Positions 327-53,138 of a DNA stretch of 64,000 bases are shown piece by piece. A program made the position numbers and the translations under genes. The notes below the pieces were generated by a model. It did not search any database. It was not told the DNA's origin and saw only the letters and a program-made list of their open reading frames with translations. Every line of letters begins with the position of its first letter. Position 1 is the stretch's first letter. Origin of the DNA: an uncultured Planctomycetota bacterium (GTDB lineage Bacteria; Planctomycetota; Planctomycetia; Isosphaerales; Isosphaeraceae); contig CAWGMQ010000003.1 in the NCBI GenBank assembly GCA_963823665.1, forward strand, positions 1,664,001 through 1,728,000. The letters are read 5' to 3'.

Positions 327-585
327 CGGCGACACTCCTTGTTCGGACACGGTCCTGGTAATCCGGGGCCGGACTCGCCGCACTGGCTGTGCCGCACTTA
401 TTCATCGGACCTCAGAAGGGCTTTAATAAGCGTTTTAGTCGCCAAAATCGCAATTACCCAAAAACTCCGCGCCAACATCACGCTGGCGCGCTGGGAACTC
501 GTACTTGCGATGTTGAATCGAGTTCTCCCCCCCGGGACGTTGTAATCGCGCGAGATAGACGTGGCACACCAGCGACGGCGTTCCC

Positions 586-607
586 GTAGTGTGGGTGCAA
601 CCCACCG
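586..607. repeat. REP-like palindrome
   Basis: GTAG followed by hairpin GTGGGT-GCA-ACCCAC in an intergenic region. Confidence 0.4.
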
Positions 608-708
608 TCTTCACACAGCTTGCGGCAGGTCGCATCGGCTAAGTAGGCAACGAACCCGCGCTGGCCCCTGATGGCGTGCGATACGTTACCGATAGCAGAG
701 TTTGATCG

Positions 709-885
709 ATGACCGACCACAAATCCGAAGACAACGATCTTACTCCCGAGCAGTGGACGGCTGAAGTTAAGCAGTTCATCAGAGATTTGATCGTTCCTGG
801 CTTTATCCAGCAGCACGAAGGCAAATGGGTTCATCGAACGGATCCCGATACTTGGTATGAGTTCGATCCCTCACTAACGAAATAA
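709..885 (+). CDS. Small hypothetical protein (58 aa)
   Basis: ATG709..TAA885, MTDHKSEDNDLTPEQWTAEVKQFIRDLIVPGFIQQHEGKWVHRTDPDTWYEFDPSLTK; below ORF-track cutoff. Confidence 0.45.
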   Translation: MTDHKSEDNDLTPEQWTAEVKQFIRDLIVPGFIQQHEGKWVHRTDPDTWYEFDPSLTK

Positions 886-1005
886 CGATTTCAGCGAAAG
901 CGCTTCGATAAACCGATTCACGCGCACGAATCCGCGGTGCCTCTCTCCGATCGATCAAAGCGGCTTCGAATCCCCGCTCGTCATCATCCGTTCGACTTCA
1001 AACCC

Positions 1006-1205
1006 ACATTCTTGAATTCTTCGCGCCTTCCCTTGGCGCCTTTGCGACTTTGCATGTGTATATCTTCATACAAACATTCTTGAATTCGTCGCGCCATGCC
1101 TTTGCGACTTTGCGTGAGCCCGTCTCCCCTTTTCCGTTCAATAACCCGGCCCAAATCGTCACTCCCATTCGCGTGAGCTTCTCCTCCCGTGATACCGCCC
1201 ACGCC
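1006..1205. repeat. Dispersed repeat, left copy (partly duplicated internally); similar to 14037-14178
   Basis: 1011-1053 matches 14037-14079 at 41/43 nt; second partial unit from 1074; weaker similarity continues to GATACCGCC near 1200. Confidence 0.75.
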
Positions 1206-1269
1206 CGCGTGTGCTCGGGCATTCCGGTAGGCGTAGCCTGCGATGGAAGACGCATTCTCACACTCGCGA

Positions 1270-1956
1270 TCAACTCTCGCCTGGAATCCTGCTCTTGCGA
1301 CCCGGTTTCTTCGCCTTCTTCACTCGCTTTTCATCCTCGATCGTATCAACATATTCATCGAGCCAGTCGACACCCCCGCGGAGGTTCATCATGAAACAGC
1401 GAACCTCGATGTCCCAGAGATGTTTCAGAGACTCGAGATCCGGGTTCTTCCCGTAGGAACGCTTGACGATCTCCCGGAATCTCCTGGAGATCGGATCCGT
1501 CTCGCCAGGAGGATACGGGTCGACTCGACGCTCGCGGCAATAGTTGTCGATATCAGCCTTGAGCAAGAACGCCTGGCGGCTGTGATCCTTATGCTCGGCC
1601 TCCAGGTCATAAATGTTGTGGCCGGCATCCGGGTCGTACTTCACGTACGACTGATCAAAAAACTCCGTGTAGGCACCGCAATCGCGGTGCTCGACAACGT
1701 ATACATATTTAATTTGATGGAGGCCCACGGCCAGGACCAGGTGATCGAAGAACGCCTTGTGCCAGGCAGGCATCTGCATGGCACCGGCCGCCGCTCCGGC
1801 CAGGATGAACTGGTCGAAGCGGTTTTCAAGGTTCTCGAAATTCATGAACTTCACCAGATTATCCAGCAACCTCAGGTCCATGCAGCTCAAAAGGAGCACG
1901 TTCTTGCGAGGGGAGGTGTGGGTCGTGCTCTGGTAATCGGCTTGGCTGACGTCCAT
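1270..1956 (-). CDS. Beta-class carbonic anhydrase-like protein
   Basis: SCMDLR (CxDxR) and EHRDCGAY (HxxC) zinc-ligand motifs; start chosen at MDVSQ. Confidence 0.8.
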   Translation of the reverse strand: MDVSQADYQSTTHTSPRKNVLLLSCMDLRLLDNLVKFMNFENLENRFDQFILAGAAAGAMQMPAWHKAFFDHLVLAVGLHQIKYVYVVEHRDCGAYTEFFDQSYVKYDPDAGHNIYDLEAEHKDHSRQAFLLKADIDNYCRERRVDPYPPGETDPISRRFREIVKRSYGKNPDLESLKHLWDIEVRCFMMNLRGGVDWLDEYVDTIEDEKRVKKAKKPGRKSRIPGES

Positions 1957-2153
1957 AGATCGGTCCCTGATAGTTTCCCTGTTCTCGTTCACGATCCCCA
2001 CTGCCCGATTGTAAGATAATTTCAATTCGAGGACGGCGCCCGAGTCCTCTCGATTCGCTGTTGGGCGACTTCGAGTTCGTGGGTGGATATCCGGCCGGTA
2101 TTGTGTTGCGATGGGATGCGGTAAGGCTATCATCAACATTAGAATGTGTTCAT

Positions 2154-2213
2154 GCCTGACGAGGCGATCCAGCGGACCCGCCTGCGGCGGGCCGCTGAAC
2201 TTTCGCGTCAAAT
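2154..2213 (+). repeat. attC-like site, short class
   Basis: GCCTGAC..GATCCAGCGGACCCGC..GCGGGCCGCTGAAC..GTCAAAT. Confidence 0.85.
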
Positions 2214-2231
2214 GGCTTCGGGGGAGCGAGC

Positions 2232-2483
2232 GTGAAAACTGTCGTCGTGGTGCCGATACGCGGCCAGGGCAACGCCTGGAAGGTGGCCGAGCCGTCGGAT
2301 CCGCCCGCCAGGGTGCAAGATCGCGTGGTCACGCTCGAGATCCAGGGCAACGCCGCAGAGGGTTACCACCTCGTGATGAGCCCGGCCGGCTGCTTCACCG
2401 CGGACACTTGGCACGCGAGCGTCGAGGATGCCAAGGCCACCGCCGCGAAACTGTTTGGTGTCCCTCCCCAAGAGTGGTCATAG
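2232..2483 (+). CDS. Cassette hypothetical protein (83 aa)
   Basis: GTG start after GGGGAG; fills the space between two attC-like sites. Confidence 0.75.
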   Translation: MKTVVVVPIRGQGNAWKVAEPSDPPARVQDRVVTLEIQGNAAEGYHLVMSPAGCFTADTWHASVEDAKATAAKLFGVPPQEWS

Positions 2484-2485
2484 CC

Positions 2486-2590
2486 GCCTAACCATGACGG
2501 ATCGGAGTCCGCGAAGCCAGACCTCCAATCAATGTACAACAAGCCCGGCGATGACCGCGCAGAGCCCTGAGCATGGGAAACGCTCGGCGG
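2486..2590 (+). repeat. Degenerate attC-like site, long class
   Basis: GCCTAAC just after the stop, central GTACAAC, CCCTGAGC right arm; R' unclear. Confidence 0.5.
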
Positions 2591-2599
2591 CAGGGTCGA

Positions 2600-2737
2600 T
2601 CAACGATCGGTAAGCCCTGCCGTCTTTATCGCCTGAGGGTTCGCACCGCAGTCGCCACGCAGCACTCCTGGCTTCGCGTGCACCTGATCGAGCAGTCCGG
2701 GCGGCCTTGCATCACTCGTCGCGTGACCATTCGTCAT
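2600..2737 (-). pseudogene. intI: Possible decayed 5' remnant of an integron integrase
   Basis: MTNGHATSDARPPGLLDQVHAKPGVLR resembles IntI N-termini (P-x-LLDQVR-x-x-x-R-x-x-HYS); divergent from the downstream cassettes; no catalytic domain. Confidence 0.35.
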
Positions 2738-2921
2738 CTTTCTATGTTTTCGTTTGGAATCCCAATTCTGCGTCCGTAGGATCATTTGAAATCGAGGACA
2801 GTGCCTGACTGCTCGGCAGTGTTTCCTGCTCGACGTTGGGCAGCACGTCCGGCGGAATGAGAAAAAACGCGGTTTCTGTCGAATTCTTGTGAGCACACGT
2901 TCAAGCCACACTGATCCCAAG

Positions 2922-3372
2922 ATGAAGCGTCCACTTCGCATCGGCAGCTTGGCGCAGTACATCGAGGCGACGAACTCCGTACGCGACTCATGGATCGGGA
3001 AAGGCGCGTACTTCGACCCCTGGTTCCGTGGGCACACCGACGCCGACTGGGAACTTACTGCTTCTCTGATTCGGCTCGGCCTCGAAGATCACGAGGACGC
3101 GATTCGATCGGAGCTCATTTGATCCACCCCACATCGCTCGCCGCGTCGCGGTTCAGCAGAGCCGATTCACGATTCACGGGACCGCGGCGAACGGAATTGA
3201 GTTGTTAGGGCGGCGGCGGGGTTCGCGTTTACAGAAGTTGGTAATTGACCAGGAAGCAATTGTTAAGGTGCGCGTTGACCTGTACACTGCCGGCATCACG
3301 GACACCAGTGTCTTCCCCGACCTCCAGGGGCTCAGCCAGGAACTCACTCGCTACTTCACGGACGACTGGTAG
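2922..3372 (+). pseudogene. FRG domain protein cassette with internal deletion and frameshift
   Basis: N-part WFRGHTDADWELTASLIR stops at 3122; another frame gives PPHIARRVAVQQSRFTIHG...GITDTSVFPDLQGL to TAG3372; central QHYG-x-PTRLLDW segment missing. Confidence 0.75.
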
Positions 3373-3433
3373 CAGAACACGCTTTAAGCTTGCAGGACGC
3401 TCGACGGCAGGATCGCTCAACGATCATTCAGGC
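3372..3433 (+). repeat. Degenerate attC-like site
   Basis: GCAGAAC overlapping the FRG stop; eroded arms; TTCAGGC at the end. Confidence 0.35.
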
Positions 3434-3515
3434 ATGCGCCGCTGGTCGTGACTCGAGTATCGGGCCGCGGACGCCATATTGTCGGCGGCAGCCACTTTGC
3501 GGTAGTCTCCAAGGT

Positions 3516-3719
3516 ATGAGCGTAGAAGAACTCCAGGCCGCCGTCGCACAGCTCCCCGCTGAGGAGCTCGATCGCTTTTCGCACTGGTTCGAGGAGTTCC
3601 TGGCGGATCAATGGGATCGGCGAATCGAGGCCGATATCCTGGCCGGGCGCCTTGAAGCCGCGGGCCGCCGCGCCGACGAGGACTTCGAAGCCGGCCGCTG
3701 CACGCCGCTCTCGCCGTGA
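3516..3719 (+). CDS. Putative type II antitoxin
   Basis: MSVEELQAAVAQLPAEEL...WDRRIEADILAGRL; stop overlaps toxin start (GTGA). Confidence 0.8.
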   Translation: MSVEELQAAVAQLPAEELDRFSHWFEEFLADQWDRRIEADILAGRLEAAGRRADEDFEAGRCTPLSP

Positions 3720-3973
3720 ACCACTTCGCCACCCCGGAGTTCTGGTTCCACTATCGCCGCCTACCGGCGGAAACCCGCGACCTGGCTGACCAATGCTTCG
3801 CGATGCTCCAAGCTGATCCGCGCCATCCGTCGCTGCGATTCAAGAAGGTCGGGGATTTCTGGTCTGCTCGTGTCGGTCTCCGCATCCGCGCGCTCGCGAG
3901 GCAGCGCCCCGAGGGCTTGGTCTGGTTCTGGATCGGTCCCCATGATCGCTACGAGCAACTGATCGCTCAATGA
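3716..3973 (+). CDS. RelE/ParE-like type II toxin
   Basis: FWFHYRRLP...DPRHPSLRFKKVG..WSARVG...WFWIGPHDRYEQL pattern. Confidence 0.85.
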   Translation: MNHFATPEFWFHYRRLPAETRDLADQCFAMLQADPRHPSLRFKKVGDFWSARVGLRIRALARQRPEGLVWFWIGPHDRYEQLIAQ

Positions 3974-4034
3974 ACGACAAGCGGACCCGCCCCAGCGGAC
4001 CCGCTCCGCGGGCCGGCGGTCTGCGGCGTTAGCC
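3969..4034 (+). repeat. attC-like site (partly degenerate)
   Basis: AATGAAC..CAGCGGACCCGC..GCGGGCCG..GTTAGCC. Confidence 0.7.
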
Positions 4035-4048
4035 TGCGGGAGGCGCGG

Positions 4049-4414
4049 ATGCTCGGGCTGCTCGAAGTTCTCTGGTGGCATCACTGGTCCTGTCCCCGAA
4101 CCATCGAGTCGGCCGCGCATGACTTCCTCAACGCTCGCAACCCGGAGCGAGTCAGGGCTGTCACGCACGTGGGATCGCGGGCCGCCTGGCCCATTCGCTG
4201 GCCCAACTGGAGGCTCAATCGACCGCGGTCGTAGCCGACACCGCGCGGCGGGCGATCCACGACGTGTGGCTGGCAATCGTCGACGATTACGAGAACGGTC
4301 GATCAAATCTGTCGAGCGCTTATCTCGCCAATGTTCATGCGAGGCTAGCGGCGGCTAGCTCGGGAGTACGCGAGACAGCAGGCGCCAGGCGGCGGCGCTC
4401 CGGGCATCGCATAA
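4049..4414 (+). pseudogene. Disrupted cassette ORF, hypothetical
   Basis: ATG after GGAGG; coding signal split over several frames; final frame ends at TAA inside R'' GCATAAC. Confidence 0.5.
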
Positions 4415-4506
4415 CCGTCGCTGCAACGGACCCGGCCCGCCGCGGCTTCGTGATACAATCCACGCTCGTGCTCGGTGGGCCGGGCCGCTGAGCTCATGCG
4501 TTAGGG
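4409..4506 (+). repeat. attC-like site, long class, TGATACAAT in central region
   Basis: GCATAAC..CAACGGACCCGGCCCGCC..GGTGGGCCGGGCCGCTGAGC..GTTAGGG. Confidence 0.9.
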
Positions 4507-4523
4507 GGCGGGGGGTCCACAAG

Positions 4524-4775
4524 ATGGTGGATGCATGTCCCAGTTGCGGCGCGCCAGTCGGCCAGCTTCACGAGCCGTTCTGCAACCGGGAGCTGTGTCC
4601 CTTCTGCGGCGACTTCATCACCACTTGCGACTGCATCTTCGAGGTGCTGTCGCTCACGGCCGAGGAGTGTGAGCTCGTCGAGAAGTTCGAGGACGACTCA
4701 GTCCAGCCCCTCCGGGGTATCTGCGACCGCTGGAGCGAAGCAGTTGAAGCCAAGGGGCGGGTTCCGTACGCTTGA
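4524..4775 (+). CDS. Cys-rich putative zinc-binding cassette protein
   Basis: CPSCG...H..FC...CPFCG...CDC. Confidence 0.75.
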   Translation: MVDACPSCGAPVGQLHEPFCNRELCPFCGDFITTCDCIFEVLSLTAEECELVEKFEDDSVQPLRGICDRWSEAVEAKGRVPYA

Positions 4776-4812
4776 GTCACTGCTTAAGCATCGGCGGCCT
4801 CAGCCGTGACAA

Positions 4813-4872
4813 CCCCTACATTGCGATGCAGCGGACCCGCCTGCGGCGGGCCGCTGATCCTTGTCGTCAGGC
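4813..4872 (+). repeat. attC-like site, short class
   Basis: CCCCTAC..GATGCAGCGGACCCGCCTGCGGCGGGCCGCTGATC..GTCAGGC. Confidence 0.85.
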
Positions 4873-4891
4873 CTGCACGGACCACGGACAC

Positions 4892-5209
4892 ATGGCAACG
4901 TGGCAATACGAGCTTGTGGACCCGCCCTTCGAACCTCGGGCTCGCGAACTCTGGCTGCAGCACGCTGCAGGGTTCATCATCTTTCAGGATGTTTGTGACA
5001 AGGCGACGGAATGTGCATGGGCTATCACGGCTGGCTCGAAGGTGATTTTGGCAAACATCCAGTCGCGGTATCGCGACCCAGCGAGGGTGATGGCGAGGCC
5101 CAGCCCTGACGAATCGCCGCGTCAGCCCCGGCCCCCGGCGATGCTTTGTGTTAGATTCGTGGCTGCGCCCGGCCAGCCCCTCGCACGCCGGGCGCGGAAC
5201 GCCGCCTGA
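4892..5209 (+). CDS. Cassette hypothetical protein (possibly internally deleted)
   Basis: MATWQYELVDPP...; TGA overlaps R'' GCCTGAC. Confidence 0.55.
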   Translation: MATWQYELVDPPFEPRARELWLQHAAGFIIFQDVCDKATECAWAITAGSKVILANIQSRYRDPARVMARPSPDESPRQPRPPAMLCVRFVAAPGQPLARRARNAA

Positions 5210-5307
5210 CCGGCGAGCCAGCAGACAAGCCAGTCGGCTGGCCGCTGTTCTTTAGTACAATCACGGCTCCGCCCGACGGTCGGTCCGCTAAGCTTTGGTC
5301 GTCAGGC
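5204..5307 (+). repeat. attC-like site, long class, TAGTACAAT in central region
   Basis: GCCTGAC..CAGCAGAC..GTCCGCTAAGC..GTCAGGC. Confidence 0.8.
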
Positions 5308-5320
5308 ACCGAGGAAATCA

Positions 5321-5608
5321 ATGTCTCCAGTCGTCCCCGAAGCGTGGAAGCCGCGGCTGCGGCAGTATCTCCGCCAGCGGCGTGGCGAGGAGCGCGACCG
5401 CCTCTCGGCCGATGATTTCCCACCGGGGCTGTGCGTCCTCATCCGCTTCCCCGATGGTTCCCACGTCCTCTTTCGGTATGCGTTCGCCATCCTGGATGAG
5501 GCGGCCGGCGAGGTCATCGTCTTCACGGAGCACTGCGGGTACCATGTATTTCCGCTCGGTGATGCCGAGGTCGAAGAACTGCAATCGTCGGATTCACGGG
5601 TCCGCTGA
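5321..5608 (+). CDS. Cassette hypothetical protein (95 aa)
   Basis: ATG after GAGGA; bounded by attC-like sites. Confidence 0.75.
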   Translation: MSPVVPEAWKPRLRQYLRQRRGEERDRLSADDFPPGLCVLIRFPDGSHVLFRYAFAILDEAAGEVIVFTEHCGYHVFPLGDAEVEELQSSDSRVR

Positions 5609-5609
5609 T

Positions 5610-5669
5610 GTCTAATATTGCGATGCAGCAGACACCGCTGCGCGGGGCCGCTGATCCGCGTTGTTAGCC
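5610..5669 (+). repeat. attC-like site, short class
   Basis: GTCTAAT..GATGCAGCAGAC..GGCCGCTGATC..GTTAGCC. Confidence 0.8.
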
Positions 5670-5687
5670 GAGGGGGGAAGGTGGACC

Positions 5688-6126
5688 ATGTCGTTCTCCG
5701 AGAACATGGCCAAGGTCGTGGCCGACCAGCTCGCTCGCTTCGTCACCCTCAACACGCATCAACTCGCTGGCCATGTGGCCAACCTCGACTTCTGGGTCTC
5801 TCAGGCCCGGCACGCCTTGGAGGTCATCGACGGCTACGAGCCACGATTCCGCCAGCTCAAGGCGGCGCAAGATCAGTACGTGGCCGAGCACCGGACCGAG
5901 AACCTTTCTGCCCAGCGACCCTGATATCCACGGGTCACCGGACCCGCCACGGCGTGTCGCACATGCGGCTCTGCGTGAGGCCCGTCGCTCGGTTACGGAG
6001 CCGACTTACCGCTTCCTGGTGCGCTGCTGCAACGACGGTCTGATCGCGGAGTCGAAGTTGCGAGCCATCTGCTTTAACCTGGATACCGGCGTCGAGTCCG
6101 CAGACATTCGTCGAAGACGGGGCTAA
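5688..6126 (+). CDS. Cassette hypothetical protein, frameshift near 5900
   Basis: MSFSENMAKVV... joins ...DPDIHGSPDPPRRV...RRRG; TAA inside GGCTAAC. Confidence 0.65.
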
Positions 6127-6181
6127 CGTTGCGATCCAGCGGACCCGCCTCGCGGCGGGCCCCGGAACTGGAGCTTCAGGC
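6121..6181 (+). repeat. attC-like site, short class, right end eroded
   Basis: GGCTAAC..GATCCAGCGGACCCGCC..GGCGGGCCCC. Confidence 0.75.
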
Positions 6182-6189
6182 GGCGCGAA

Positions 6190-6579
6190 ATACACCCTCA
6201 CGAGGCGGCGACAATTCGAGCATTTGTATCTCCGTCGCGTCGAGAGCGATGGCTCGGCCTCCTGGCATCGGCGAAGCGGCGTCGCTCGTTCCTCGGCCGA
6301 CTGAATCACTGCCGAGACATTGATGAACGATATGCCACGCCGGTTCCCTCGAGCGCCAACATCGCCGCAGTGCTCGGTTCTCATGGCGCACCGGAGACTT
6401 GCTACGTCCTCTCCGATATCCCGACGATAGACGGCCGGGAGTTACCCCTCGATGAGGCCATCGATCAGGTCGAGTTGGCCATGTGGGGAACACTCATCAG
6501 TTGCGTTCCCGGTCGCCTCGCGTACTACTATGATGAGTGTGGCGCTCGACGCTGGCTGCTACAGCGATCGACCGTTTGA
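6190..6579 (+). CDS. Cassette hypothetical protein, copy 1 (start reads ATA)
   Basis: 390-nt near-identical copy of 7812-8201. Confidence 0.7.
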   Translation: MHPHEAATIRAFVSPSRRERWLGLLASAKRRRSFLGRLNHCRDIDERYATPVPSSANIAAVLGSHGAPETCYVLSDIPTIDGRELPLDEAIDQVELAMWGTLISCVPGRLAYYYDECGARRWLLQRSTV

Positions 6580-6672
6580 CCCGGTGCTGCAGCGGACCCG
6601 CACGCCGCGGCGGCTTCTGGTACAATCGACAGCGGCTCGGGCGGGCCGGTCCGCTGAGCTTCGCTCTTGGAA
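6574..6672 (+). repeat. attC-like site, long class, TGGTACAAT in central region
   Basis: GTTTGAC..CTGCAGCGGACC..GGTCCGCTGAGC; R' degenerate. Confidence 0.8.
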
Positions 6673-6834
6673 GGTGATAACTATGCATGCGTGGGCGAGG
6701 CGAAACCTCGACGTCACTTACTATGCTCGATGGCTCAATCCGTATGCCCAGCATCGGTGACTTGGTCAAGTCTATCGAGTGTCGTGGGCTGGGCCTTGGG
6801 TCTCCTCGAAGCCGGCGGATTCGAGCTGGGGCGA

Positions 6835-6892
6835 GCCTGACGAGGCGATGCAGCGGGCCCGCTCCGCGGACCGCTAAATTCCGTCGTTAGGT
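6835..6892 (+). repeat. attC-like site, short class
   Basis: GCCTGAC..GATGCAGCGG..CCGCTAAAT..GTTAGGT. Confidence 0.8.
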
Positions 6893-6908
6893 TCAGCGGA
6901 GGTGAGCG

Positions 6909-7313
6909 GTGGCGCGACGCTGGAAGTTGTGGGTGATCGGGATCTCCGTCGCCGCTACCGCCGTCCTCCTGGGGTGGTGGGCGACCGGTAAGGTCCTAGC
7001 TCCTCCCCTGAGACCGGAGAACTTCAACCAATTGCGGACCGGGATGCCCCAGTCCGAAGTAGAAGAGTTGCTCGGCGGTCCGCCCGGCAACTACGGCCAC
7101 GGCGGTGAAGCGATGATGACGGACGAAGGGTTCCGCAGTCCGCCCGGGTCGGTCCAGCGGATCTGGTGCGATGACAAGAACAGGCTCGAGCTGTACTTCG
7201 ACACCCGGGCGCGATTGGTCGGGTACCACAAGCGGGCGGGCTATACCCAGTCCCCGCCCGACGGATTCTTGGCTCGTCCGTGGCAGTCGAGTCGACGATT
7301 CTTGGGGCTCTGA
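6909..7313 (+). CDS. Membrane-anchored cassette protein with SmpA/BamE-like motif
   Basis: N-terminal hydrophobic segment; ENFNQLRTGMPQSEVEELLGGPPG. Confidence 0.7.
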   Translation: MARRWKLWVIGISVAATAVLLGWWATGKVLAPPLRPENFNQLRTGMPQSEVEELLGGPPGNYGHGGEAMMTDEGFRSPPGSVQRIWCDDKNRLELYFDTRARLVGYHKRAGYTQSPPDGFLARPWQSSRRFLGL

Positions 7314-7348
7314 CCAGAGCGACGTCGGGCCTGACCTTGGCGTTAGCC
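7308..7348 (+). repeat. Internally deleted attC-like site (41 bp)
   Basis: CTCTGAC ... GTTAGCC with L boxes largely missing. Confidence 0.55.
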
Positions 7349-7361
7349 CGCGAGGGCACCG

Positions 7362-7748
7362 GTGAGACGTTCTCGAAAGGATAGCCGACGCCGCATCACC
7401 ATCGATGGCGTGGTCTACCGCTATCGTGTCTCTCCCAACAATGGCTTCATCACACTCACCGCGAAACCGAAAGGTTTCCGCGGGCAATTGCTCTCGGTCA
7501 CCTACGGCTACCACGACGATTGGGTGCCAGTCGGCGGCGGGGCTTTTACCTCAGGCGGTCACCGCCTCATACTGCCGCGTGTGGTGCGCCAGGCGATACT
7601 CGAAGGGCTGCGTCGAGGCTGGGATCCGATGGCATCAAAGCCGGGTGTATTCCGGGTGCATGATGGCGACAGCTTGCCCCAGGAAGACGAATGGCCCCGC
7701 TTCACTTCAGACCGGTCAACCTCGAAGCCATCGGGTGGCGTGCGCTAA
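7362..7748 (+). CDS. Cassette hypothetical protein (128 aa)
   Basis: RRITIDGVVYRYRV...ILPRVVRQAILEGLRRGWDP. Confidence 0.75.
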   Translation: MRRSRKDSRRRITIDGVVYRYRVSPNNGFITLTAKPKGFRGQLLSVTYGYHDDWVPVGGGAFTSGGHRLILPRVVRQAILEGLRRGWDPMASKPGVFRVHDGDSLPQEDEWPRFTSDRSTSKPSGGVR

Positions 7749-7803
7749 AACTGCGGTCTAGCGGACCCGCCTGGCGGCGGGCCCCTGATCTGGGACGTTC
7801 GGC
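7743..7803 (+). repeat. attC-like site, short class
   Basis: CGCTAAA..TAGCGGACCCGCC..GGCGGGCCCCTGATC..GTTCGGC. Confidence 0.8.
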
Positions 7804-7811
7804 GGCGGAAA

Positions 7812-8201
7812 ATGCACCCTCACGAGGAAGCGACAGTTCGAGCATTTGTATCTCCGTCGCGTCGAGAGCGATGGCTCGGCCTCCTGGCATCGGCGAAGCG
7901 CCGTCGCTCGTTCCTCGGCCGACCGAATCACTGCCGAGACATTGATGAGCGATATACCACGCCGGTTCCCTCGAGCGCCAACATCGCCGCACTGCTCCGT
8001 TCTCATGGCGCACCGGAGACTTGCTACGTCCTCTCCGATATCCCGACGATAGACGGCCGGGAGTTACCCCTCGATGAGGCCATCGATCAGGTCGAGTTGG
8101 CCATGTGGGGAACACTCATCAGTTGCGTACCCGGTCGCCTCGCGTACTACTATGATGAGTGTGGCGCTCGACGCTGGCTGCTACAGCGATCGACCGTTTG
8201 A
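7812..8201 (+). CDS. Cassette hypothetical protein, copy 2 (129 aa)
   Basis: Intact ATG; duplicate of 6190-6579. Confidence 0.8.
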   Translation: MHPHEEATVRAFVSPSRRERWLGLLASAKRRRSFLGRPNHCRDIDERYTTPVPSSANIAALLRSHGAPETCYVLSDIPTIDGRELPLDEAIDQVELAMWGTLISCVPGRLAYYYDECGARRWLLQRSTV

Positions 8202-8294
8202 CCGTGTGCTCCAGCGGACCCGCCCGCCGCGGCGTTTCTGCTACAATCAAGGTTCCGCCCGGCGGACCGAACCGCTAAGCTTTGGTCGTTAGGT
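8196..8294 (+). repeat. attC-like site, long class, TGCTACAAT in central region
   Basis: GTTTGAC..CTCCAGCGGACC..CCGCTAAGC..GTTAGGT. Confidence 0.85.
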
Positions 8295-8311
8295 GGCAGA
8301 GACTGCAGGCC

Positions 8312-8929
8312 ATGAGTGATCGAATCGGCGTCGCAACGATCTGCTTGCACAGTAGCTCTGCCATCTATTTGATCGCGGGCTTGGCCTTTCTCGGCTATTC
8401 GCGATTGCCAGCTCAGCCAACGAACCTGCCCTCGGAAGCAGGGTTGGTAGGCTGCATTACCTGCCTCACATTGGCTGCGGGCATCGAGCTGGTGGCTCGT
8501 GGCCTCCGGCGCCGAAGGTATTGGGCATGGGTCGCCGGCGTGTGCATCCTCACGCTCTACGTCCCAACTGTGTTCTTGCCCCTCGGGGCCCTAGGGCTCT
8601 GGGCCCTCCTGACGCCAGCAACAAGAGCCTTGTTCGGCGTCGGACCATTGACCTCGATATCCAGGCGTCCCGGATCGGTGTCCATGACAACCGTCGCGTT
8701 CCGCCTGCTCCTTCTAACAATCGCCTTGACCGGCGTCGCGGTCGCTTACGTCCATTTATCGGGCGTAGGCATGCCACCGTATTCGCCAGTGCCGGACCCT
8801 TCCGAACTCGAGCGGATTCACCGTCTCGTGGGCCTCGCCTTATTCGCGGTCGCTGCGCTCTCCGCCGCCTTATCGATCGCGGCTCTAGCCGCCGTTATAT
8901 TGGTCCGATATCGTCGTCGGCCCCCCTGA
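8312..8929 (+). CDS. Cassette multi-pass membrane protein
   Basis: Several hydrophobic segments; TGA inside CCCTGAC. Confidence 0.7.
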   Translation: MSDRIGVATICLHSSSAIYLIAGLAFLGYSRLPAQPTNLPSEAGLVGCITCLTLAAGIELVARGLRRRRYWAWVAGVCILTLYVPTVFLPLGALGLWALLTPATRALFGVGPLTSISRRPGSVSMTTVAFRLLLLTIALTGVAVAYVHLSGVGMPPYSPVPDPSELERIHRLVGLALFAVAALSAALSIAALAAVILVRYRRRPP

Positions 8930-8984
8930 CCCGGCGATCCAGCGGACACGTCTGTTGCCCGGCCGCTGATCTTTAGCGTTAGCC
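8924..8984 (+). repeat. attC-like site, short class
   Basis: CCCTGAC..GATCCAGCGGAC..GGCCGCTGATC..GTTAGCC. Confidence 0.85.
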
Positions 8985-8987
8985 GCC

Positions 8988-9385
8988 ATGGGAGAACCCG
9001 TGCAAGGTTCGAGCGCTGTCGAGGTAGTAATTGAGTACTGGCGCCTCATGGGCACCAATGACTTTGCTGCCGTCGGTGCCGTGCTGGCGCCCGAGTTCGT
9101 CCTCGAGTGGCCGCTGTCGCGCGAGCGCATTCGCGGGGCAGAGCGTTTTGCCCGGATGAATGCGGAGTACCCTGCCCATGGCCGTTGGTCCTTCACGGTC
9201 AATCGCTTGGTTGGCGGTCAGTCGGAAGCGGTCTCCGACGTCACGGTCACCGACGGAGTGCAAACCGCAAGGGTCATATCGTTCTTCGAGGTCAGCGGCG
9301 ACAAGATCACGCGGCTGGTCGAGTTCTGGCCCGAGCCGTATGAACCGCCTGCCAATCGGCGCATCTCGTGGAGCGCATGCAATGA
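8988..9385 (+). CDS. SnoaL-like / NTF2 family protein (frameshift near 9360)
   Basis: EWPLSRERIRG..F..MNAEYP..GRW...EFWPEPY; restoring 1 nt gives ANRAHLVERMQ* ending in R''. Confidence 0.8.
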
Positions 9386-9483
9386 CCCGCGCTGCAGCAG
9401 ATCCGAACCGCCGCCGAGCTTTGTGGTAAGATCGACGCGATGCGAGGCCCGGCCTGCCGGGCCGCTGAGCTCCGGCGTTACGC
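9380..9483 (+). repeat. attC-like site, long class, TGGTAAGAT in central region
   Basis: CAATGAC..CTGCAGCAGATCCG..CGGGCCGCTGAGC..GTTACGC. Confidence 0.8.
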
Positions 9484-9498
9484 AGCAGGGTCTGGCTG

Positions 9499-9840
9499 AT
9501 GCAACGGTTCCTGTTTGAATACATCGAGTTGTTCTCCTTCATCGGCGCCGGCACTCCGGAGGAGCCTGGCGGGGACTTCACCATGTACTGCTGGATCTCG
9601 GCGCCGGACAAGGCGGCTGCACTGGCATGGGGGTACGTCCTGATCGGCGACTACTGCAAGGCGCGATACGCGCACTCGGCAGACGGCCATCGGCACGACG
9701 GATCGCCGATCGAGGAGGGAGAGATCGTCGAAGACCCCGGGGTACTTGCTGCTGCCGTGCATTGGGATATTCCTGCATGCCGCGTCGGTGAGGTCCCCGA
9801 ATGGCGCGAGCCGTGGCGGTTATCCAACACCGGGAGATAG
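9499..9840 (+). CDS. Cassette hypothetical protein (113 aa)
   Basis: ATG 16 nt after R'; acidic protein. Confidence 0.65.
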   Translation: MQRFLFEYIELFSFIGAGTPEEPGGDFTMYCWISAPDKAAALAWGYVLIGDYCKARYAHSADGHRHDGSPIEEGEIVEDPGVLAAAVHWDIPACRVGEVPEWREPWRLSNTGR

Positions 9841-9845
9841 GCCAA

Positions 9846-10235
9846 GTGAAGCGCACGTGGACGATCATTGGGGTAGCCGATGTGGCCGGCAGCTTCAAAT
9901 GGTACCAGTCGCTCTTCGGCCAGCCGGAGATGCGTCCCGCCCATGACGACTTCGGGCAAATCCTCGACTCGGATGGCACGGTCTTGCTCTGCCTTCACGC
10001 GTGGGGTGCCCACGAGCATCCCTCCTTGATGAGCCCCGATCACGGGAAGCCTGGGAATGGCCTCCTCTTGTTCTTCCGTGTAGACGATTTCGACATGGCC
10101 CTGCCAAGGGCACGGGCTCTCGCCTCTCAGCTCGAAGCGGAGCCCCACGTGAACCCGAACACAGGAACCATGGAGTTCTCGCTCCGAGATCCAGACGGGT
10201 ATTATGTCACGATTAGTGCGCTCTCTGCGGCCTGA
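9846..10235 (+). CDS. VOC / glyoxalase family protein
   Basis: IIGVADVAGSFKWYQSLFG...LFFRVDDFD...EFSLRDPDGYYV. Confidence 0.9.
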   Translation: MKRTWTIIGVADVAGSFKWYQSLFGQPEMRPAHDDFGQILDSDGTVLLCLHAWGAHEHPSLMSPDHGKPGNGLLLFFRVDDFDMALPRARALASQLEAEPHVNPNTGTMEFSLRDPDGYYVTISALSAA

Positions 10236-10275
10236 CCACTCGCTCAATCGCACCGGCGCATCCTGGTTCATTCAG

Positions 10276-10734
10276 ATGACACAGGTCCGTCCTTCTAGCC
10301 TGCTGCTGTTCACCTTGGCGATATGTGCCGCGGGGTGCCGGAGCGCACCGGACCCGGACCCCCTGCCCCATACCAGTAGCGTTCGAGGTATCAAGGCGAG
10401 GTACTTCGACCCGACGACGAAACAGAAGCTGGAATTCGACGTACCGCGTAGCCATTGGGTTCCGATCATCTCGGCGATGAGGCCGAACCGTTCCGACCCG
10501 CAGCCGGCGGACTGGATGGTCCTCGGCGAACTGCGGATTACCCAGTTGGATGGGAGTCCGTTTTTCGTGGGCATGTATTCCATCCGAAGCGGGGAGGGGG
10601 CGTTCTCGGCGGGCGCGAGCTTCGAGAAGCGGTTATACTACAGGGGCGGGAGTACGCCCGACCTCGTCCGCGCCCTGAACGCCGCCTATGCGCAGTTCAG
10701 CGGCAAGCGAGGCGATGCGACGGATGCGAAATAG
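10276..10734 (+). CDS. Putative lipoprotein cassette
   Basis: LLLFTLAICAAGC lipobox. Confidence 0.7.
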   Translation: MTQVRPSSLLLFTLAICAAGCRSAPDPDPLPHTSSVRGIKARYFDPTTKQKLEFDVPRSHWVPIISAMRPNRSDPQPADWMVLGELRITQLDGSPFFVGMYSIRSGEGAFSAGASFEKRLYYRGGSTPDLVRALNAAYAQFSGKRGDATDAK

Positions 10735-10738
10735 CCCA

Positions 10739-10789
10739 GTCTAACGAGACGCTGCAGCCGATCCGCCTGTCGGCGGGCGGTCGTTACCA
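10739..10789 (+). repeat. attC-like site with shortened right arm
   Basis: GTCTAAC..CTGCAGCCGATCCGCC..GGCGGGCGG..GTTACCA. Confidence 0.65.
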
Positions 10790-10848
10790 GGCAGAGAGAG
10801 ATACGAGGAGCGCACGCAGTAACCCGCGCCACAGATGAGAGGGTTGAG

Positions 10849-11205
10849 ATGGCGAAACACTTGCACAAAGGCGACGAGACACGGCGTCGCTGGAAGATTA
10901 TCGATGCCTCGCGGTCTGGTGACGCGAGCCTGCTGCCGCAGCTCCTCGCCCGCCTCGACGGCGGCGAGACCTACGATAATAGGCGCCATATCGTCCGGGC
11001 ACTCGGCAACATCGGCGGACCGCGATCCGAGGCCAAACTTCTTGAGTTGCTCGGCAGCGAGCGCGGGCTTATCCTCGGTGATATCGCTCGGGCTCTCGGC
11101 GAAATCGGCTGTCATCGAGCCGCCAATCCGCTTGAGAGTTTGCGCACGCACGAATCCGAGTGGGTTCGCCAGAATGTCACATTTGCGCTTCGACGGCTCT
11201 CATAG
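10849..11205 (+). CDS. HEAT repeat protein
   Basis: Repeated RALGNIGG / RALGEIG / WVRQN helical units. Confidence 0.85.
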   Translation: MAKHLHKGDETRRRWKIIDASRSGDASLLPQLLARLDGGETYDNRRHIVRALGNIGGPRSEAKLLELLGSERGLILGDIARALGEIGCHRAANPLESLRTHESEWVRQNVTFALRRLS

Positions 11206-11208
11206 CAT

Positions 11209-11240
11209 GGCTAACAATGCGATGTCGGAACTTGTCAGGC
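11209..11240 (+). repeat. Collapsed attC remnant (32 bp)
   Basis: GGCTAAC-AATGCGATG...GTCAGGC with the central stem deleted. Confidence 0.55.
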
Positions 11241-11305
11241 GTGGACGCGGCCCTCAAGCGCACGCCCAAGGGCCTTACAGGTGAAGGCCCAAACGGGAGC
11301 AGTTG

Positions 11306-11854
11306 ATGGCGTTATCCGACGACGACCTCCGGCGTAGTTTCGAGGCCTTCGAGAACCGCAAACGATATCCAGTGCTCGCACCCAGCGTCTTCGCTGGCAT
11401 CGGCGACGAGTCGGTCGAGCAGGCGATCCTCGATTTCGTCGAGATGAAGGTTGGTCGCAACTCGAAGCGCCAGTACAAGATCGTGACGGCGCTCCCATTC
11501 GGCATTCAAGCCGTTTACACAACCTACTTCCTTGATGCCGAGGTCCGCAATGGCGGCTTCAACCAGTACTTCTGGAATTCCACCGGTCAATTTGCAATCG
11601 AGGCCTTGGACGGACTTCGCTTCTTCGGCGCTACTGATCACGCGAGACTCCTCGAGGGCGCAGTTCAGACTTACATGCGAGAGGCACCCATTCTCACGCG
11701 ATTCCGCATGCGCAACACACTCAAGGCTTTCAGCACGTCGTACAAAGCTACCAGTCTCACCGAATTCGACCAACCGTGGTACCGGTTTCCGTCAATTAGC
11801 CCGCTGCGCGTCAGCCGAATTCGCGCCGAGCCAAGCCTCTTCTCCGCAAGATAG
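11306..11854 (+). CDS. DUF4375 / DMP19 family protein
   Basis: LDAEVRNGGFNQYFWNSTG motif. Confidence 0.85.
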   Translation: MALSDDDLRRSFEAFENRKRYPVLAPSVFAGIGDESVEQAILDFVEMKVGRNSKRQYKIVTALPFGIQAVYTTYFLDAEVRNGGFNQYFWNSTGQFAIEALDGLRFFGATDHARLLEGAVQTYMREAPILTRFRMRNTLKAFSTSYKATSLTEFDQPWYRFPSISPLRVSRIRAEPSLFSAR

Positions 11855-11969
11855 CACTGCCCGCGGGCGTACAAAGCGCCGCCGCTAACATGCGGATATG
11901 CTGGAGTCGCGGGTCAAGCTAGTATGGGAGTTGTTCGCGGATGTGCCGCCGGACACCTTGCCCACGGAC

Positions 11970-12022
11970 GGCTAACGAGCCGATCCAGCGGACCCATGGG
12001 CCGCTGATCTGGGGCGCTACGG
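11970..12022 (+). repeat. attC-like site, short class
   Basis: GGCTAAC..GATCCAGCGGACCC-AT-GGGCCGCTGATC..GCTACGG. Confidence 0.8.
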
Positions 12023-12038
12023 GCGGGAGGTTCACCCT

Positions 12039-12464
12039 TTGCGGATCACGCTCACTCGCTTCACCTCCGGGCTGCTTCGCGTCCTGCTTACGCCGATCGT
12101 CCTACCGATCAAGTTGTTGAGCGCGGTGACGGGGCGGGGCAAGAAGCCGGCTTATGCGAGCACCATTGCCGGCGATCCGCTCGCGTACTCCGGCGACAGG
12201 CCCGTCCTCATCGCCGTCTGGGCATCATGGGCGGGGGTGTGGCGTGCAGCAACCGAGCAGGTCGTCGAGCAATTGCGCGGCGAGTTCGCCGGCAGTTGCG
12301 AGTTCGCGTATGTCGAGTGCGACAGCAGCACCATCAAAGACGCCTATCGTGCCGATGTCGTGCCGGTCCTGATCTTGCGGCATCGGGGTCACGAGTTGGC
12401 CCGCTTCGTCAACACGCTTGAGGCCGCTAGAGTACGGCAGGCGATCGCAGAAGTTGCCGCCTGA
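12039..12464 (+). CDS. Thioredoxin-fold protein lacking CxxC
   Basis: PVLIAVWASWAGVW...VPVLILRHRGHELARFV; TTG start after GGAGG. Confidence 0.7.
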   Translation: MRITLTRFTSGLLRVLLTPIVLPIKLLSAVTGRGKKPAYASTIAGDPLAYSGDRPVLIAVWASWAGVWRAATEQVVEQLRGEFAGSCEFAYVECDSSTIKDAYRADVVPVLILRHRGHELARFVNTLEAARVRQAIAEVAA

Positions 12465-12557
12465 CCTGGCGCCGCACTGGCCCAGGCCCGCCGCGGCGAC
12501 TTTCGCGGTATCACGGCTTTGCTCCGCGGGCCTGGCCGCTGAGCTTGCTTGTTTGAC
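12459..12557 (+). repeat. attC-like site, long class
   Basis: GCCTGAC..CCAGGCCCGC..GGTATCAC..GCGGGCCTGGCCGCTGAGC..GTTTGAC. Confidence 0.8.
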
Positions 12558-12575
12558 AGCAGCGGGGCGAGTCAC

Positions 12576-13097
12576 ATGCGGATCCGGAAGGCGAGTGAGT
12601 CAGATGCGGAGGCGATCACGGCCGTACACATCGCTTCGATGCGGGAGGCGTATCGTACGCTCGTACCGCCCGAGGCGCTCGCGGGATTCGACGCGCAGGA
12701 CCGGACTCAGCGGTGGCGTGAGGTTCTCGCCGAGGGAACATCGACCACCCTGCTCGCGGAAGCCGGCGGCGAGCCCTTCGGCTTCGCCAGCTTCGGGAGG
12801 TGCCGGGATGAAGACATCTCGCCGGGGGCGGTCGGCGAGGTGATGGCCATCTACGTCCGCCCTGATGCCTGGGGCCAAGGCGTCGGTAGGGCGCTGCTGC
12901 GCGAGGCGCTCGATCGGCTGCGCAGTGACGGATTCGCCGAGGTGTCGCTATGGGTGATCGAGGCGAATCGGCAAGCGATCGAGTTTTACGAGCGGTTCGG
13001 GTTCCTCCGCGATGGCTCGCTTCGCCGCCATGAGATGCTCGGGACTCCTACGGTCATCATTCGGATGCGGTTGCGGTCGGGTATGGATACCGTCTAA
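12576..13097 (+). CDS. GNAT family N-acetyltransferase
   Basis: IYVRPDAWGQGVGRALL and NRQAIEFYERFGF motifs. Confidence 0.92.
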   Translation: MRIRKASESDAEAITAVHIASMREAYRTLVPPEALAGFDAQDRTQRWREVLAEGTSTTLLAEAGGEPFGFASFGRCRDEDISPGAVGEVMAIYVRPDAWGQGVGRALLREALDRLRSDGFAEVSLWVIEANRQAIEFYERFGFLRDGSLRRHEMLGTPTVIIRMRLRSGMDTV

Positions 13098-13107
13098 CAC
13101 TCTCGGA

Positions 13108-13467
13108 TTGCTGGTTCTACTACTGGTCGTCGCCGCCCCAATAGCCTGGTTCGCCTCGGAGTTCCAGGATCGGCGCTGGCTGTGTCTCGCCTTGGGTACC
13201 TTGACCATCCTGCTCTCCTTCGGCGTCGCGGCCCTGGTCGGATCGCTGGAGCGGTTCAATTCCAACGCCTGGTTCGGTCGCGCCACGAAGGAACTGATCG
13301 ACGCCGCGGTCACTGAACTGGAGGCAGGCAACCCGGCTCGGGTTCTGCGCTCGCTCAAAGACTTGCAGGGGCAATACACGCCCACCTACGAGAACCGAGC
13401 GCGATACGATATGCTGGTGCAGGAAGCGGTGAAGGAGATGCGATCGCCGGAGGGAAAGGCCCACTGA
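13108..13467 (+). CDS. Cassette membrane protein, probably 5'-truncated
   Basis: Two hydrophobic segments plus YTPTYENRARYD; begins just after a lone R'' GTCTAAC; start uncertain. Confidence 0.6.
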   Translation: MLVLLLVVAAPIAWFASEFQDRRWLCLALGTLTILLSFGVAALVGSLERFNSNAWFGRATKELIDAAVTELEAGNPARVLRSLKDLQGQYTPTYENRARYDMLVQEAVKEMRSPEGKAH

Positions 13468-13612
13468 CATCGCGATTCGACAAAGCTCACCCTCCCGGCC
13501 ACCACGAGTTGATCGGGGTCGGGCACTCTTGCTTCGGTGTCGGCGATCAGGCGGCGATCGTGGACAACCTGTTCGCCAATATCCAGAGCGTTCGGCACCG
13601 AGCGAGCAGACA

Positions 13613-14011
13613 ATGAAAATCTGGCAGCTAGCCATCACGCTGATCGTCTTGATCGTCTTGCGTGAGGTGTCCGGAAACCTCCTGATGCGACTTACGGGGT
13701 TGGCTGTGCTGGCCAATTTCGGGGGGCTGGCCATCGGCTCGTTCTTCTCCGGATGGCTGGCCGGTGCAATCAGCGAGCTCGGTCCTTCCCGTGGCCAGCT
13801 CTGGAGCTTGGCCGCGCTGGGTGTCATCGCAGCGATCGGGATTGGTTTCATCCAGGGTGCGAACTTTCTGGCGGTGGCCGTGGTATTCATGGTGCTGATC
13901 AACATACCACTGTCGTACGGTTGCCTACTCCTCGGTGCCCACGTCGCGGAGCCCCGCACAAAGATCCAGCCGCCGCCTCTAGAAGAGGATAGCCTCGGTT
14001 CGGACCCTTAG
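13613..14011 (+). CDS. Membrane protein, last ORF of the array
   Basis: Four hydrophobic segments; preceded by GTTCGGC at 13590. Confidence 0.7.
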   Translation: MKIWQLAITLIVLIVLREVSGNLLMRLTGLAVLANFGGLAIGSFFSGWLAGAISELGPSRGQLWSLAALGVIAAIGIGFIQGANFLAVAVVFMVLINIPLSYGCLLLGAHVAEPRTKIQPPPLEEDSLGSDP

Positions 14012-14036
14012 GCTTCACATGCATCCGCCGAGCTCG

Positions 14037-14178
14037 CTTGAATTCTTCGCGCCCTCCCTTGGCGCCTTTGCGGCTTTGCGTGATCCCATCTTCCCTGTTT
14101 CGCTGTGCTTCATTCCGGCCCGCATCTTCACTCCGATTTGCCTGATCAACTCTTCGCGCGATACCGCCAAAGCCCCGA
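14037..14178. repeat. Dispersed repeat, right copy
   Basis: CTTGAATTCTTCGCGCC...CTTTGCGGCTTTGCGTGA...GATACCGCC, similar to 1006-1205. Confidence 0.75.
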
Positions 14179-15140
14179 TTACGCAAACTCGGGATCGGTC
14201 ACTCCATCTCGACAGGCCTTTGCGTCCACGCCCTTGCGGGCAAGTTCCACCACAGCCCGATACCCCGGCATCGTCGAGTCCAGCGAAATTGTCTGCCCGT
14301 CGATCGCATGAATCCGCGCTCGCTCGATCGACGGCCCATCCACGTCCTGGCCCCGTTTCACATCGATTGAGTCAACACTTGAGAATGGAATCGATCGCCT
14401 GAGAAAAATGCTCCATAGCGCCAGCCCGGTCGGGTTCACCGTCAACTTCCGCGAGATCAATTCCAGACTGAGCATCGCCAGAAGCGGCGACGCGGCCACC
14501 GCCAGCACGCTGAGGTACCACACCGCGGGCGAATCGTCTACACGGCCGCTACCGGCCAGGTTGAGCCCGGATAAACCCCCGACCAAGAAGATCGGAACCA
14601 TCGTCGCCATCATCATGAACCCGACCGTCCTGGTCGGCCGGAACGACCCTCCGTGCTTGGCCAGATCGCGCAGGCCCTCCTCGCGCAAGGCGGCAAGACG
14701 AGGCTCGAGTCGCGCACGCAACTTCGAGCCCTCGAGCAGGTAATGAAATCGAATCGGAAGCCGCGTGCCATCCCGTCCATACAAAAACATGCGCCCGAAC
14801 GTCTTCTCAATCCCTTTGAAGCCGGTTGGGCACGACTCTTCGAAGCGAACCAGATCACTCCAGGCGACGACGCTTCGCCACCCCGAGGCGTGCCGTGTGA
14901 TCCCCTGATCATCCAGTGTGAAGCTGCGCCTGCCTCACCGGCTGCCAAAACCAGGAAAATCGCGGCGGCCGTCAGGCCCCCCATCAGGAAAATCGCCGCC
15001 GCGCAAGTTACCAGGTCGAACGTATGGATTTGGGGAACGGCCAGGCTGATGATTAAACCAGCGAAACACAGCAGCAAGCCACCCGTCAGCGCAAAAACCG
15101 CCGCCACGCCCCTATCCCCCTCGTATCGCTCCACGTCCAT
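14179..15140 (-). CDS. Membrane protein with probable bacterial PH-like domains (frameshift near 14915)
   Basis: ORFs 14613-15140 and 14179-14790 join; TM pairs followed by LTVNPTGL...IPFSSV pattern. Confidence 0.6.
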
Positions 15141-43717: not shown

Positions 43718-43774
43718 ACTCGACGAAATGCCATCATCCTTTTCGGGCATCCGCCACAAGTAACGAGTTCACAC

Positions 43775-46353: not shown

Positions 46354-46395
46354 GAATGCCCGGGCGACAATAATCTCGGAGGTTTCACTTCACTG

Positions 46396-47837: not shown

Positions 47838-47907
47838 AGAGCGATCCCGTGTAGCAGGCACACTCCGTGTGCCGCCCGCTCACCCAAGTATCAAGGAGAT
47901 TTGAGGC

Positions 47908-50513: not shown

Positions 50514-50527
50514 AGGAGTGCTTCCAC

Positions 50528-53129: not shown

Positions 53130-53138
53130 CCTCCAAAG

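Follow-up and report, generated by a model that had tools for sequence, protein, structure and literature searches.

In the textbook integron, distal gene cassettes are silent until they are moved to attI, beside the cassette promoter Pc, and the standard model takes cassettes to be promoterless and the distal ones to be silent (PMC13108822). In their accessible parts, PMC13108822, 10.1101/2024.07.02.601686, 10.1101/2022.09.11.507474, 10.1101/2025.06.18.660453, PMC12690207 and 10.64898/2026.03.17.712381 either keep the promoterless model or hold nothing on promoters inside attC. In the literature searched, a coverage that stops short of subscription papers and of supplements such as Vibrio start-site tables, no attC family is reported to have a promoter among its conserved elements. 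Here we describe a cassette array in a 64,000-nt stretch of DNA (the window) from contig CAWGMQ010000003.1 of an uncultured planctomycete of the family Isosphaeraceae, whose genome we label G000. Most of the long attC recombination sites in this array carry, in the loop between their arms, a box of the form TGnTAnnnT that resembles a TGn/-10 promoter. Judging from sequence, we put at roughly 0.7 the probability that this box is an attC-borne housekeeping sigma70 promoter transcribing whichever cassette follows. Cassette-borne promoters themselves are already known (reviews PMC8876359 and PMC8618304).

Six long attC sites lie in the array, and a first-pass annotation of the window had stated that all six carry an extended -10-like motif. 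The six 9-mers lie exactly where it had placed them:

4408-4506, plus strand: long attC; TGATACAAT at 4451-4459 in the apical loop; crossover G at 4500; next open reading frame (ORF) 4524-4775.
5204-5307, plus strand: long attC with a decayed left arm; TAGTACAAT at 5253-5261, that is, TACAAT without TG; crossover G at 5301; next ORF 5321-5608.
6574-6672, plus strand: long attC; TGGTACAAT at 6618-6626; R' reads CTTGGAA, the crossover G being missing; followed by a very short remnant cassette.
8196-8294, plus strand: long attC; TGCTACAAT at 8239-8247; crossover G at 8288; next ORF 8312-8929.
9380-9483, plus strand: long attC with decayed arms; TGGTAAGAT at 9424-9432; crossover G at 9477.
9499-9840: ORF downstream of the preceding site, followed by a glyoxalase-family gene at 9846-10235.
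12459-12557, plus strand: long attC with a degenerate box, CGGTATCAC at 12506-12514, predicted to be inactive; next ORF, a GNAT acetyltransferase, 12576-13097.

The statement about all six was too broad: TGnTAnnnT is present in four and TAnnnT in five, the 5253 site having TAnnnT without TG and the 12506 site lacking both T-15 and T-7. Across the six sites, 36-44 nt separate the last base of the motif from the crossover G that follows. Since the crossover G is missing from the site at 6574-6672, that site is probably dead for recombination. The 18 matches to TGnTAnnnT on both strands of window positions 15001-64000 lead to an expectation of 0.04 in six 35-nt loops (Poisson P ~9e-8, a value that overstates the case because the sites are related). 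A standard -35/-10 scan detects none of the six sites, as expected from the absence of a -35 element.

Sites of relatives were collected with patterns that match the arms only and from 40 array regions; viral loci and the loci of the first search of G000 were left out of the set. The set is a sample of 648 distinct sites among the matches listed, 582 of which have a long inter-box region, and of these 582 sites 182 carry TGnTAnnnT on the cassette strand and 10 on the other. The attC family of the window, defined by its stem, comprises 334 sites among the matches listed, or 229 once those more than 90% alike were removed. Among the 229, TGnTAnnnT is found in 94 on the cassette strand and in eight on the other, as compared with a mean of 5.4 and a maximum of 12 in 500 shuffles of the loops. 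The spacing within the hexamer is equally specific: TA-n3-T occurs in 120 of the 229 loops, against 14-37 for spacings of 1, 2, 4, 5 and 6; a spacing of 0 (TAT, which is part of TATCAT) occurs in 90. Genome-wide counts were based on searches together with selected stretches of G000. They gave 74 matches to TGSTATCAT and 19 to a reversed control, a difference we do not use as support given that the control holds two TA steps. That 17 of 30 TGSTATCAT matches fall outside predicted genes, where predicted coding sequence makes up 68% of the DNA, is only a mild sign. The viral contigs contributed 38 loci of other, shorter attC families, which had no TGnTAnnnT between their boxes by eye and were excluded from the counts.

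The motif is real, and it is not common to all long sites. It had been described as a property of the long class, a description that does not stand: a long site on contig C7 of G000 is without it, and within the window family TGnTAnnnT is present in 94 and TAnnnT in 129 of the 229 sites. The first-pass annotation was right that short sites lack the motif, TGnTAnnnT being found in none of the 66 short sites of the comparative set and in none of the short loops of the window. A further 13 stretches of the window that resemble attC, 12 of them short and one of 92 nt, likewise had no TAnnnT in a loop, a single TAAATT overlapping an L' box. A supposed trace of the motif near 2535 is better discarded; it ends in C, has no TG, and belongs to a site that aligns poorly with the family.

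We then asked which positions of the box are constrained. When sites are aligned on TA (137 instances in 127 sites), the commonest base reaches 0.82 at T-15, 0.86 at G-14, 0.61 at -13, 0.55 at -10, 0.64 at -9, 0.80 at A-8 and 0.80 at T-7; given TGnTA, the values are 0.95 at T-7, 0.87 at A-8, 0.70 at -9, 0.58 at -10 and 0.70 at -13. Positions -15, -14, -12, -11 and -7 are thus constrained, and -13, -10 and -9 vary. Two traits of TGn/-10 promoters are found in the window and in the family alike: T-12, A-11 and T-7 are the most constrained bases of the hexamer, and the TG is followed by a free -13. An unambiguous TGnT anchor is available in 132 of the 229 sites, the remaining 97 being left out of the counts of joint loss and divergence. 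T-7 is kept in 94 of 99 sites with A-11, against seven of 33 without it. Pairwise divergence at -7 is 0.12, 0.10 and 0.09 for sites with close, middle and distant flanks, and at -10 it is 0.58-0.64 throughout. In 33 disjoint nearest-neighbour pairs, chosen greedily and not strictly independent, A-11 and T-7 changed the same way in 26 and in opposite ways in none, with seven ties.

These patterns bear on whether the box is simply inherited, an ancestral loop having happened to hold TGGTATCAT and having been copied with the family without any function. Loops are indeed conserved within lineages in families without the motif, such as those with the GTGATTCG loop; two hexamers, TATCAT and TAACAT, make up 55 of the 94; and the state of the motif has some phylogenetic signal, needing 24 changes on the tree as compared with a shuffled mean of 33. 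Neutral inheritance, on the other hand, predicts neither a fixed -7 beside varying -10 and -9 nor a loss of A-11 and T-7 together. On a tree for which the 9-mer was masked (a weak tree, from 83 columns), -7 needs five changes and -8 needs 11, the lowest counts, whereas 14 other loop positions need 21-44; the motif thus survived the refutation that had been set for it, namely that it be no better conserved than neighbouring loop bases.

Seven lineages of long sites can be defined by their stems, and four of them carry the box, with TAnnnT in 77 of 138, 29 of 44, 11 of 16 and 10 of 11 sites; one of the four consists mostly of Phycisphaerae records. The box lies at a different register in each, at 24, 27, 18 and 11-12 nt after the L'' anchor. 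Of 1152 gapped three-letter patterns, TAnnnT ranks first and G-14/A-11/T-7 second in the four, a ranking whose weight is lessened by the choice of these lineages after the motif had been seen in them. Three contact bases kept while the register shifts among lineages is the behaviour of a DNA element bound by protein, and not that of recombination geometry. The recurrence of the same three-letter pattern at four registers, in loops that are otherwise unlike, also speaks against inheritance alone, and we regard functionless shared ancestry as very unlikely.

The literature searched contained no mapped planctomycete promoters. In the family of the host, TAnnnT lies 9-24 nt upstream of 27 of 30 rnpB genes (as TATGAT, TATAAT, TAAGAT, TAGAAT, TACAAT and others); nine of these 27 promoters have TTG at -35 and two have TG. 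Upstream of 30 tRNA genes of G000, TAnnnT is present in 18 and TTG in register in 10, the other strand giving 10 and none. By the evidence of rnpB, TAnnnT is the host family's own type of -10 element. The window hexamers TACAAT and TAAGAT are both found at rnpB, and 59 of the 94 attC hexamers are among 11 seen there. TTG at -35 is present at none of the 94 attC boxes. RpoD of G000 has the sequence PVHMIET, with the His and Glu of region 3.0, which we take to be equivalent to H455 and E458. In sigma, H455 and E458 contact position -14 (PMC2613000). TG in place of TTG, as seen at the attC boxes, agrees with a compensation reported for TGn/-10 promoters. According to the same review, upstream contacts are still used by most promoters of this type, and the idea, found in the first-pass annotation, that an extended -10 needs no -35 is called a misleading generalisation (PMC2613000).

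Alternatively, the box could bind some other host protein, such as a regulator or nucleoid protein, and resemble a -10 element by chance. It occurs in some lineages only, its bias to C at -9 is unlike the rnpB promoters, and G000 has 12 matches to sigma70-family genes, several of them beyond RpoD, leaving room for another factor. The motif is not palindromic, however, and it varies exactly where sigma70 tolerates variation; together with the overlap with the rnpB hexamers, this makes another protein highly improbable. Two further candidates were dropped. A start- or stop-codon signal was rejected (ATG at -8 to -6 in 24 of 94, TAA or TAG at -12 in 25 of 94). A reading of TGGTCAGTC-type loops, by eye, as promoters for an extracytoplasmic function (ECF) sigma factor was also set aside; the L'' GGAC lies ~23 nt away, too far for the spacing of ECF promoters.

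The position of the box within attC raises another question. In the family, the box stands on the cassette-sense strand at the apex of the hairpin and is confined to two narrow registers, one 33-35 nt and the other 36-40 nt ahead of the crossover. In each of the 154 motif sites of the window family, T-12 falls within 3.5 nt of the middle of the inter-box region. We considered whether the box is bound or melted for recombination, such that an opened apex, or RNA polymerase, would nucleate the hairpin or cruciform for the integrase and RNA would be a by-product. The central T-12 fits this, as does the lack of correlation with features of the next cassette, and the TG at -15 and -14 can pair with a CA at -9 and -8 in 59 of 94 sites. 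Mere richness in A and T is excluded by the composition-preserving shuffles and the strand bias. A role in recombination accounts for an apical box and not for the off-centre registers of two of the positive lineages, C and D, in which the box lies in or beside the left arm. Moreover, T-12 and T-7 are the least paired positions of the loop (0.09 and 0.10); motif-less sites are common, including directly behind attI in complete integrons; and the box persists in the window array, which has no integrase and has TAnnnT in five of its six long sites despite decay. On balance, we consider a recombination role unlikely.

Several results weigh against a sigma70 promoter. E. coli has few pure TGn/-10 promoters that manage without upstream help (PMC2613000), and the DNA upstream of the attC boxes is very G+C-rich. 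TATCAT, the commonest attC hexamer (41 of 94), is found at one of 27 rnpB promoters, and the C at -9 looks inherited or a product of TG/CA pairing at the tip of the hairpin. In lineages C and D the TG is missing although G-14 is present, and no -35 stands out. As many as 100 of the 229 window-family sites have no TAnnnT anywhere in the inter-box region, and the other three long lineages are mostly without it (one of 20, one of 11 and two of six). We saw no link to the start signals of the next cassette, an ORF led by a Shine-Dalgarno sequence following 65 of the 127 sites with the motif and 60 of the 120 without it, and no pattern in the spacing of motif sites along arrays (P 0.33). A formal independent-pairs test yielded one usable pair on a weak tree, and the comparison with the arms is biased, the relatives having been found through intact arms. 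In mobile integrons, a study of 136 resistance cassettes found that downstream expression owes little to secondary promoters or attC sites (PMC11511950). Finally, it had been proposed that the box allows expression without Pc; the complete integrons of relatives nevertheless keep a Pc-like promoter upstream of attI, TTGC followed 17 nt further by a CAnnnT-like hexamer, in four of four examined by eye, and an attC box would therefore supplement Pc and not replace it. As a whole, the promoter interpretation is partly supported, through the constraint on the box, and has to be narrowed for the half or so of the family that lacks it and for the retention of Pc.

If the box is a promoter, RNA polymerase holoenzyme would bind the double-stranded site and start ~7 nt past the hexamer, within the loop's right half. 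The leader, of ~50-60 nt, would contain only the right arm of the hairpin and run into the start codon of the next cassette; in the window, T-7 lies 57-67 nt from the next ATG. As the loop is 5' of the crossover, the promoter would move with its own cassette and transcribe whichever cassette had joined behind. Such a scheme requires that a cassette can meet either kind of site, and in relatives one cassette start was found behind both motif-bearing and motif-less attC. Of the 33 pairs having in common only the downstream cassette, none share the loop, and we therefore rejected a loop that moves together with the gene downstream. The box being present in roughly one site in two, arrays would consist of successive short transcription units, and this would extend to distal cassettes and to arrays without integrase.

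Stored cassettes may thus be switched on by a neighbour instead of being silent. Expression would be set by the upstream neighbour, and arrays without integrase would stay useful; the cost and benefit of large arrays would need rethinking for these lineages. The question of whether cassettes outside complete integrons are expressed has a natural handle, since 'on' and 'off' sites only a few bases apart exist in cultured relatives (Tautonia and Aquisphaera records). A broader proposition is that promoters within attC are under selection in Planctomycetota arrays and were acquired (or repositioned) more than once. In such arrays, 'on' and 'off' attC would stand in about equal numbers, each cassette would set its downstream neighbour, excision or insertion anywhere would rewire expression with no need to bring a cassette to attI, and distal and integrase-less cassettes would be expressed modules; an excised circle or a tandem duplicate would put the box before its own gene. 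We offer this proposition tentatively, at a little under even odds.

The array itself is a decayed cluster of attC sites lacking an integron integrase (CALIN). Between window positions 2150 and 14011, small co-oriented genes alternate with two size classes of imperfect inverted repeats, each made up, in order, of a TAAC/TGAC end that overlaps a stop codon, the boxes CAGCGGAC and CCGCTGA on either side of a loop, and a GTT junction. The family consensus has both core sites, R'' (RYYYAAC-like) and R' (GTTRRRY-like), and so do the sites at 4408, 8196 and 9380; R' deviates at 5301, which reads GTC, and at 6666, where the G is absent. On the bottom strand, the consensus folds into the canonical long imperfect hairpin with L'' and L' paired and a terminal loop (-31.5 kcal/mol), as do, through L''/L', the sites at 4408, 6574 and 8196; the decayed sites at 5204 and 12459 misfold. 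The arms of the window sites are 0.72-0.84 identical to the consensus (family median 0.93), one site has lost its crossover G, and a gene present in duplicate has lost its ATG in one copy. The genes are unrelated to each other (SnoaL, glyoxalase, GNAT, DMP19, HEAT-repeat and orphans), and 11 of 22 proteins scanned had no Pfam match. Rfam gave nothing significant in window positions 1-15000. Other features are as follows:

2150-14011, plus strand: decayed CALIN array with short (~60 bp) and long (~100 bp) attC sites.
2106-2133, plus strand: candidate ordinary sigma70 promoter, TTGCGA-16-TATCAT, directly 5' of the first attC; it may feed the start of the array and is a weak lead (one found, 2.2 expected in shuffles).
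2154-2213, plus strand: first short attC, without loop motif; similar short sites near 3968, 4806, 5610, 6121, 6835, 7741, 8924, 10739 and 11970.
3516-3973, plus strand: two overlapping small ORFs, the second ParE-like though under the Pfam cut-off; a probable toxin-antitoxin cassette.

The window array is without the intI and attI that would stand beside it in a complete integron. No protein of G000 (16.5 Mb, 91.87% complete) scored over the cut-off of TIGR02249 for the integron integrase, the best match skipping model positions 182-236, and the attI regions of four relatives had no match in the window or in three G000 stretches examined. Each of five array-rich relatives chosen (five of five) has one intI over the cut-off, adjoining an array of the same sites, which confirms that the window repeats are attC. 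In relatives, one and the same cassette start stands behind different attC at the GTT junction, an indirect hint that such sites may be recombined by an integron integrase. Named records carrying the family belong to Isosphaeraceae and other Planctomycetia, and a strict arm pattern matched 62 of 120 genomes of the window's family and 16 of 227 genomes of other families in the class.

On the minus strand at 1270-2001, in the place that intI has in a complete integron, lies a gene with a weak carbonic-anhydrase-like Pfam match (under the cut-off) that reads away from the start of the array. On either side of the array region, at 1011-1135 and 14037-14093, lies a pyrimidine-rich repeat of ~57 nt. 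The duplicated cassette gene (6190-6672 and 7812-8294) is 97% identical between copies, the first being the one without ATG, and the attC sites behind the copies are only 77% identical, both with TGnTACAAT. Similar pairs of one gene with different attC occur at loci L340 and L368, which suggests exchange within attC. Elsewhere in G000, a second small attC cluster lies on contig C7 at ~273900-282100 (L055) and an isolated attC-like stretch with TGGTATCAT on contig C4 near 2895686 (L423). Further along the window, a large gene unit recurs in four tandem diverged copies spaced ~2.6-4.2 kb apart (41200-53200), and a tandem 15-nt repeat encodes a Gly-Tyr-rich stretch (32992-33186).

The comparison of attC sites of orthologous cassettes is confounded by a repeated element inserted at R''. 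In the arrays of genome G101 (L349-L355), a non-coding element of ~380 bp is present in many near-identical copies exactly at R'' of many different attC sites, for example at ~7970-8349 and 8807-9187 of L355, with short inverted repeats near its ends and no Rfam match (L355 5000-13000). This suggests a non-autonomous element that targets attC, which we take to be IS1111-attC-like. The same genome (L349-L351 and L355) has a 331-bp cassette with a motif-less attC and no obvious gene, in at least nine copies, often in tandem and also first behind attI. In genome G041 (L465), the stretch ~190-450 nt upstream of where intI starts contains the attI-proximal TAATCACTGTTAGGCGGC two times, once ahead of each of the first two cassettes; it looks as though a copy of attI, and not an attC, closed the first cassette.

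Compared with described systems, the sites closest in structure are the attC of sedentary chromosomal integrons and CALIN, which share the R''-L''-loop-L'-R' order, the bottom-strand hairpin, genes ending at R'' and a genome-specific site family; here, in contrast, the loop holds a constrained promoter-like box. The junction promoter of cassettes 20 and 21 in Vibrio sp. DAT722 is a sigma70 promoter that overlaps attC and drives the downstream cassette, as measured there by quantitative PCR. Its -35 lies in attC, its -10 is unique to cassette 21 and it serves one cassette (PMC2945992), whereas the box described here is contained entirely within attC, 5' of the crossover, and is found in many sites. 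Gene-less promoter cassettes are mobile array promoters that drive downstream cassettes, and cassette F2 has dispersed start sites within attC that are discussed as possibly spurious (PMC11014356, PMC6557892); there, the promoter is in the body of a dedicated cassette, and here it would be in the recombination site of ordinary ones. The Pout promoter of a group IIC-attC intron points outward at attC and restores expression of the following cassette, but is part of the inserted intron and not of the attC sequence (PMC3001079). As for the box itself, the TGn/-10 promoters galP1 and lambda Pre* have the same TG at -15/-14 and TAnnnT and no -35 (PMC2613000), and the galP1 sequence TGnTATGGT is found once among the 94 attC boxes. 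Promoters of the galP1 type often need an activator or A/T-rich upstream DNA (PMC2613000), whereas the putative attC promoter lies behind a G+C-rich stem.

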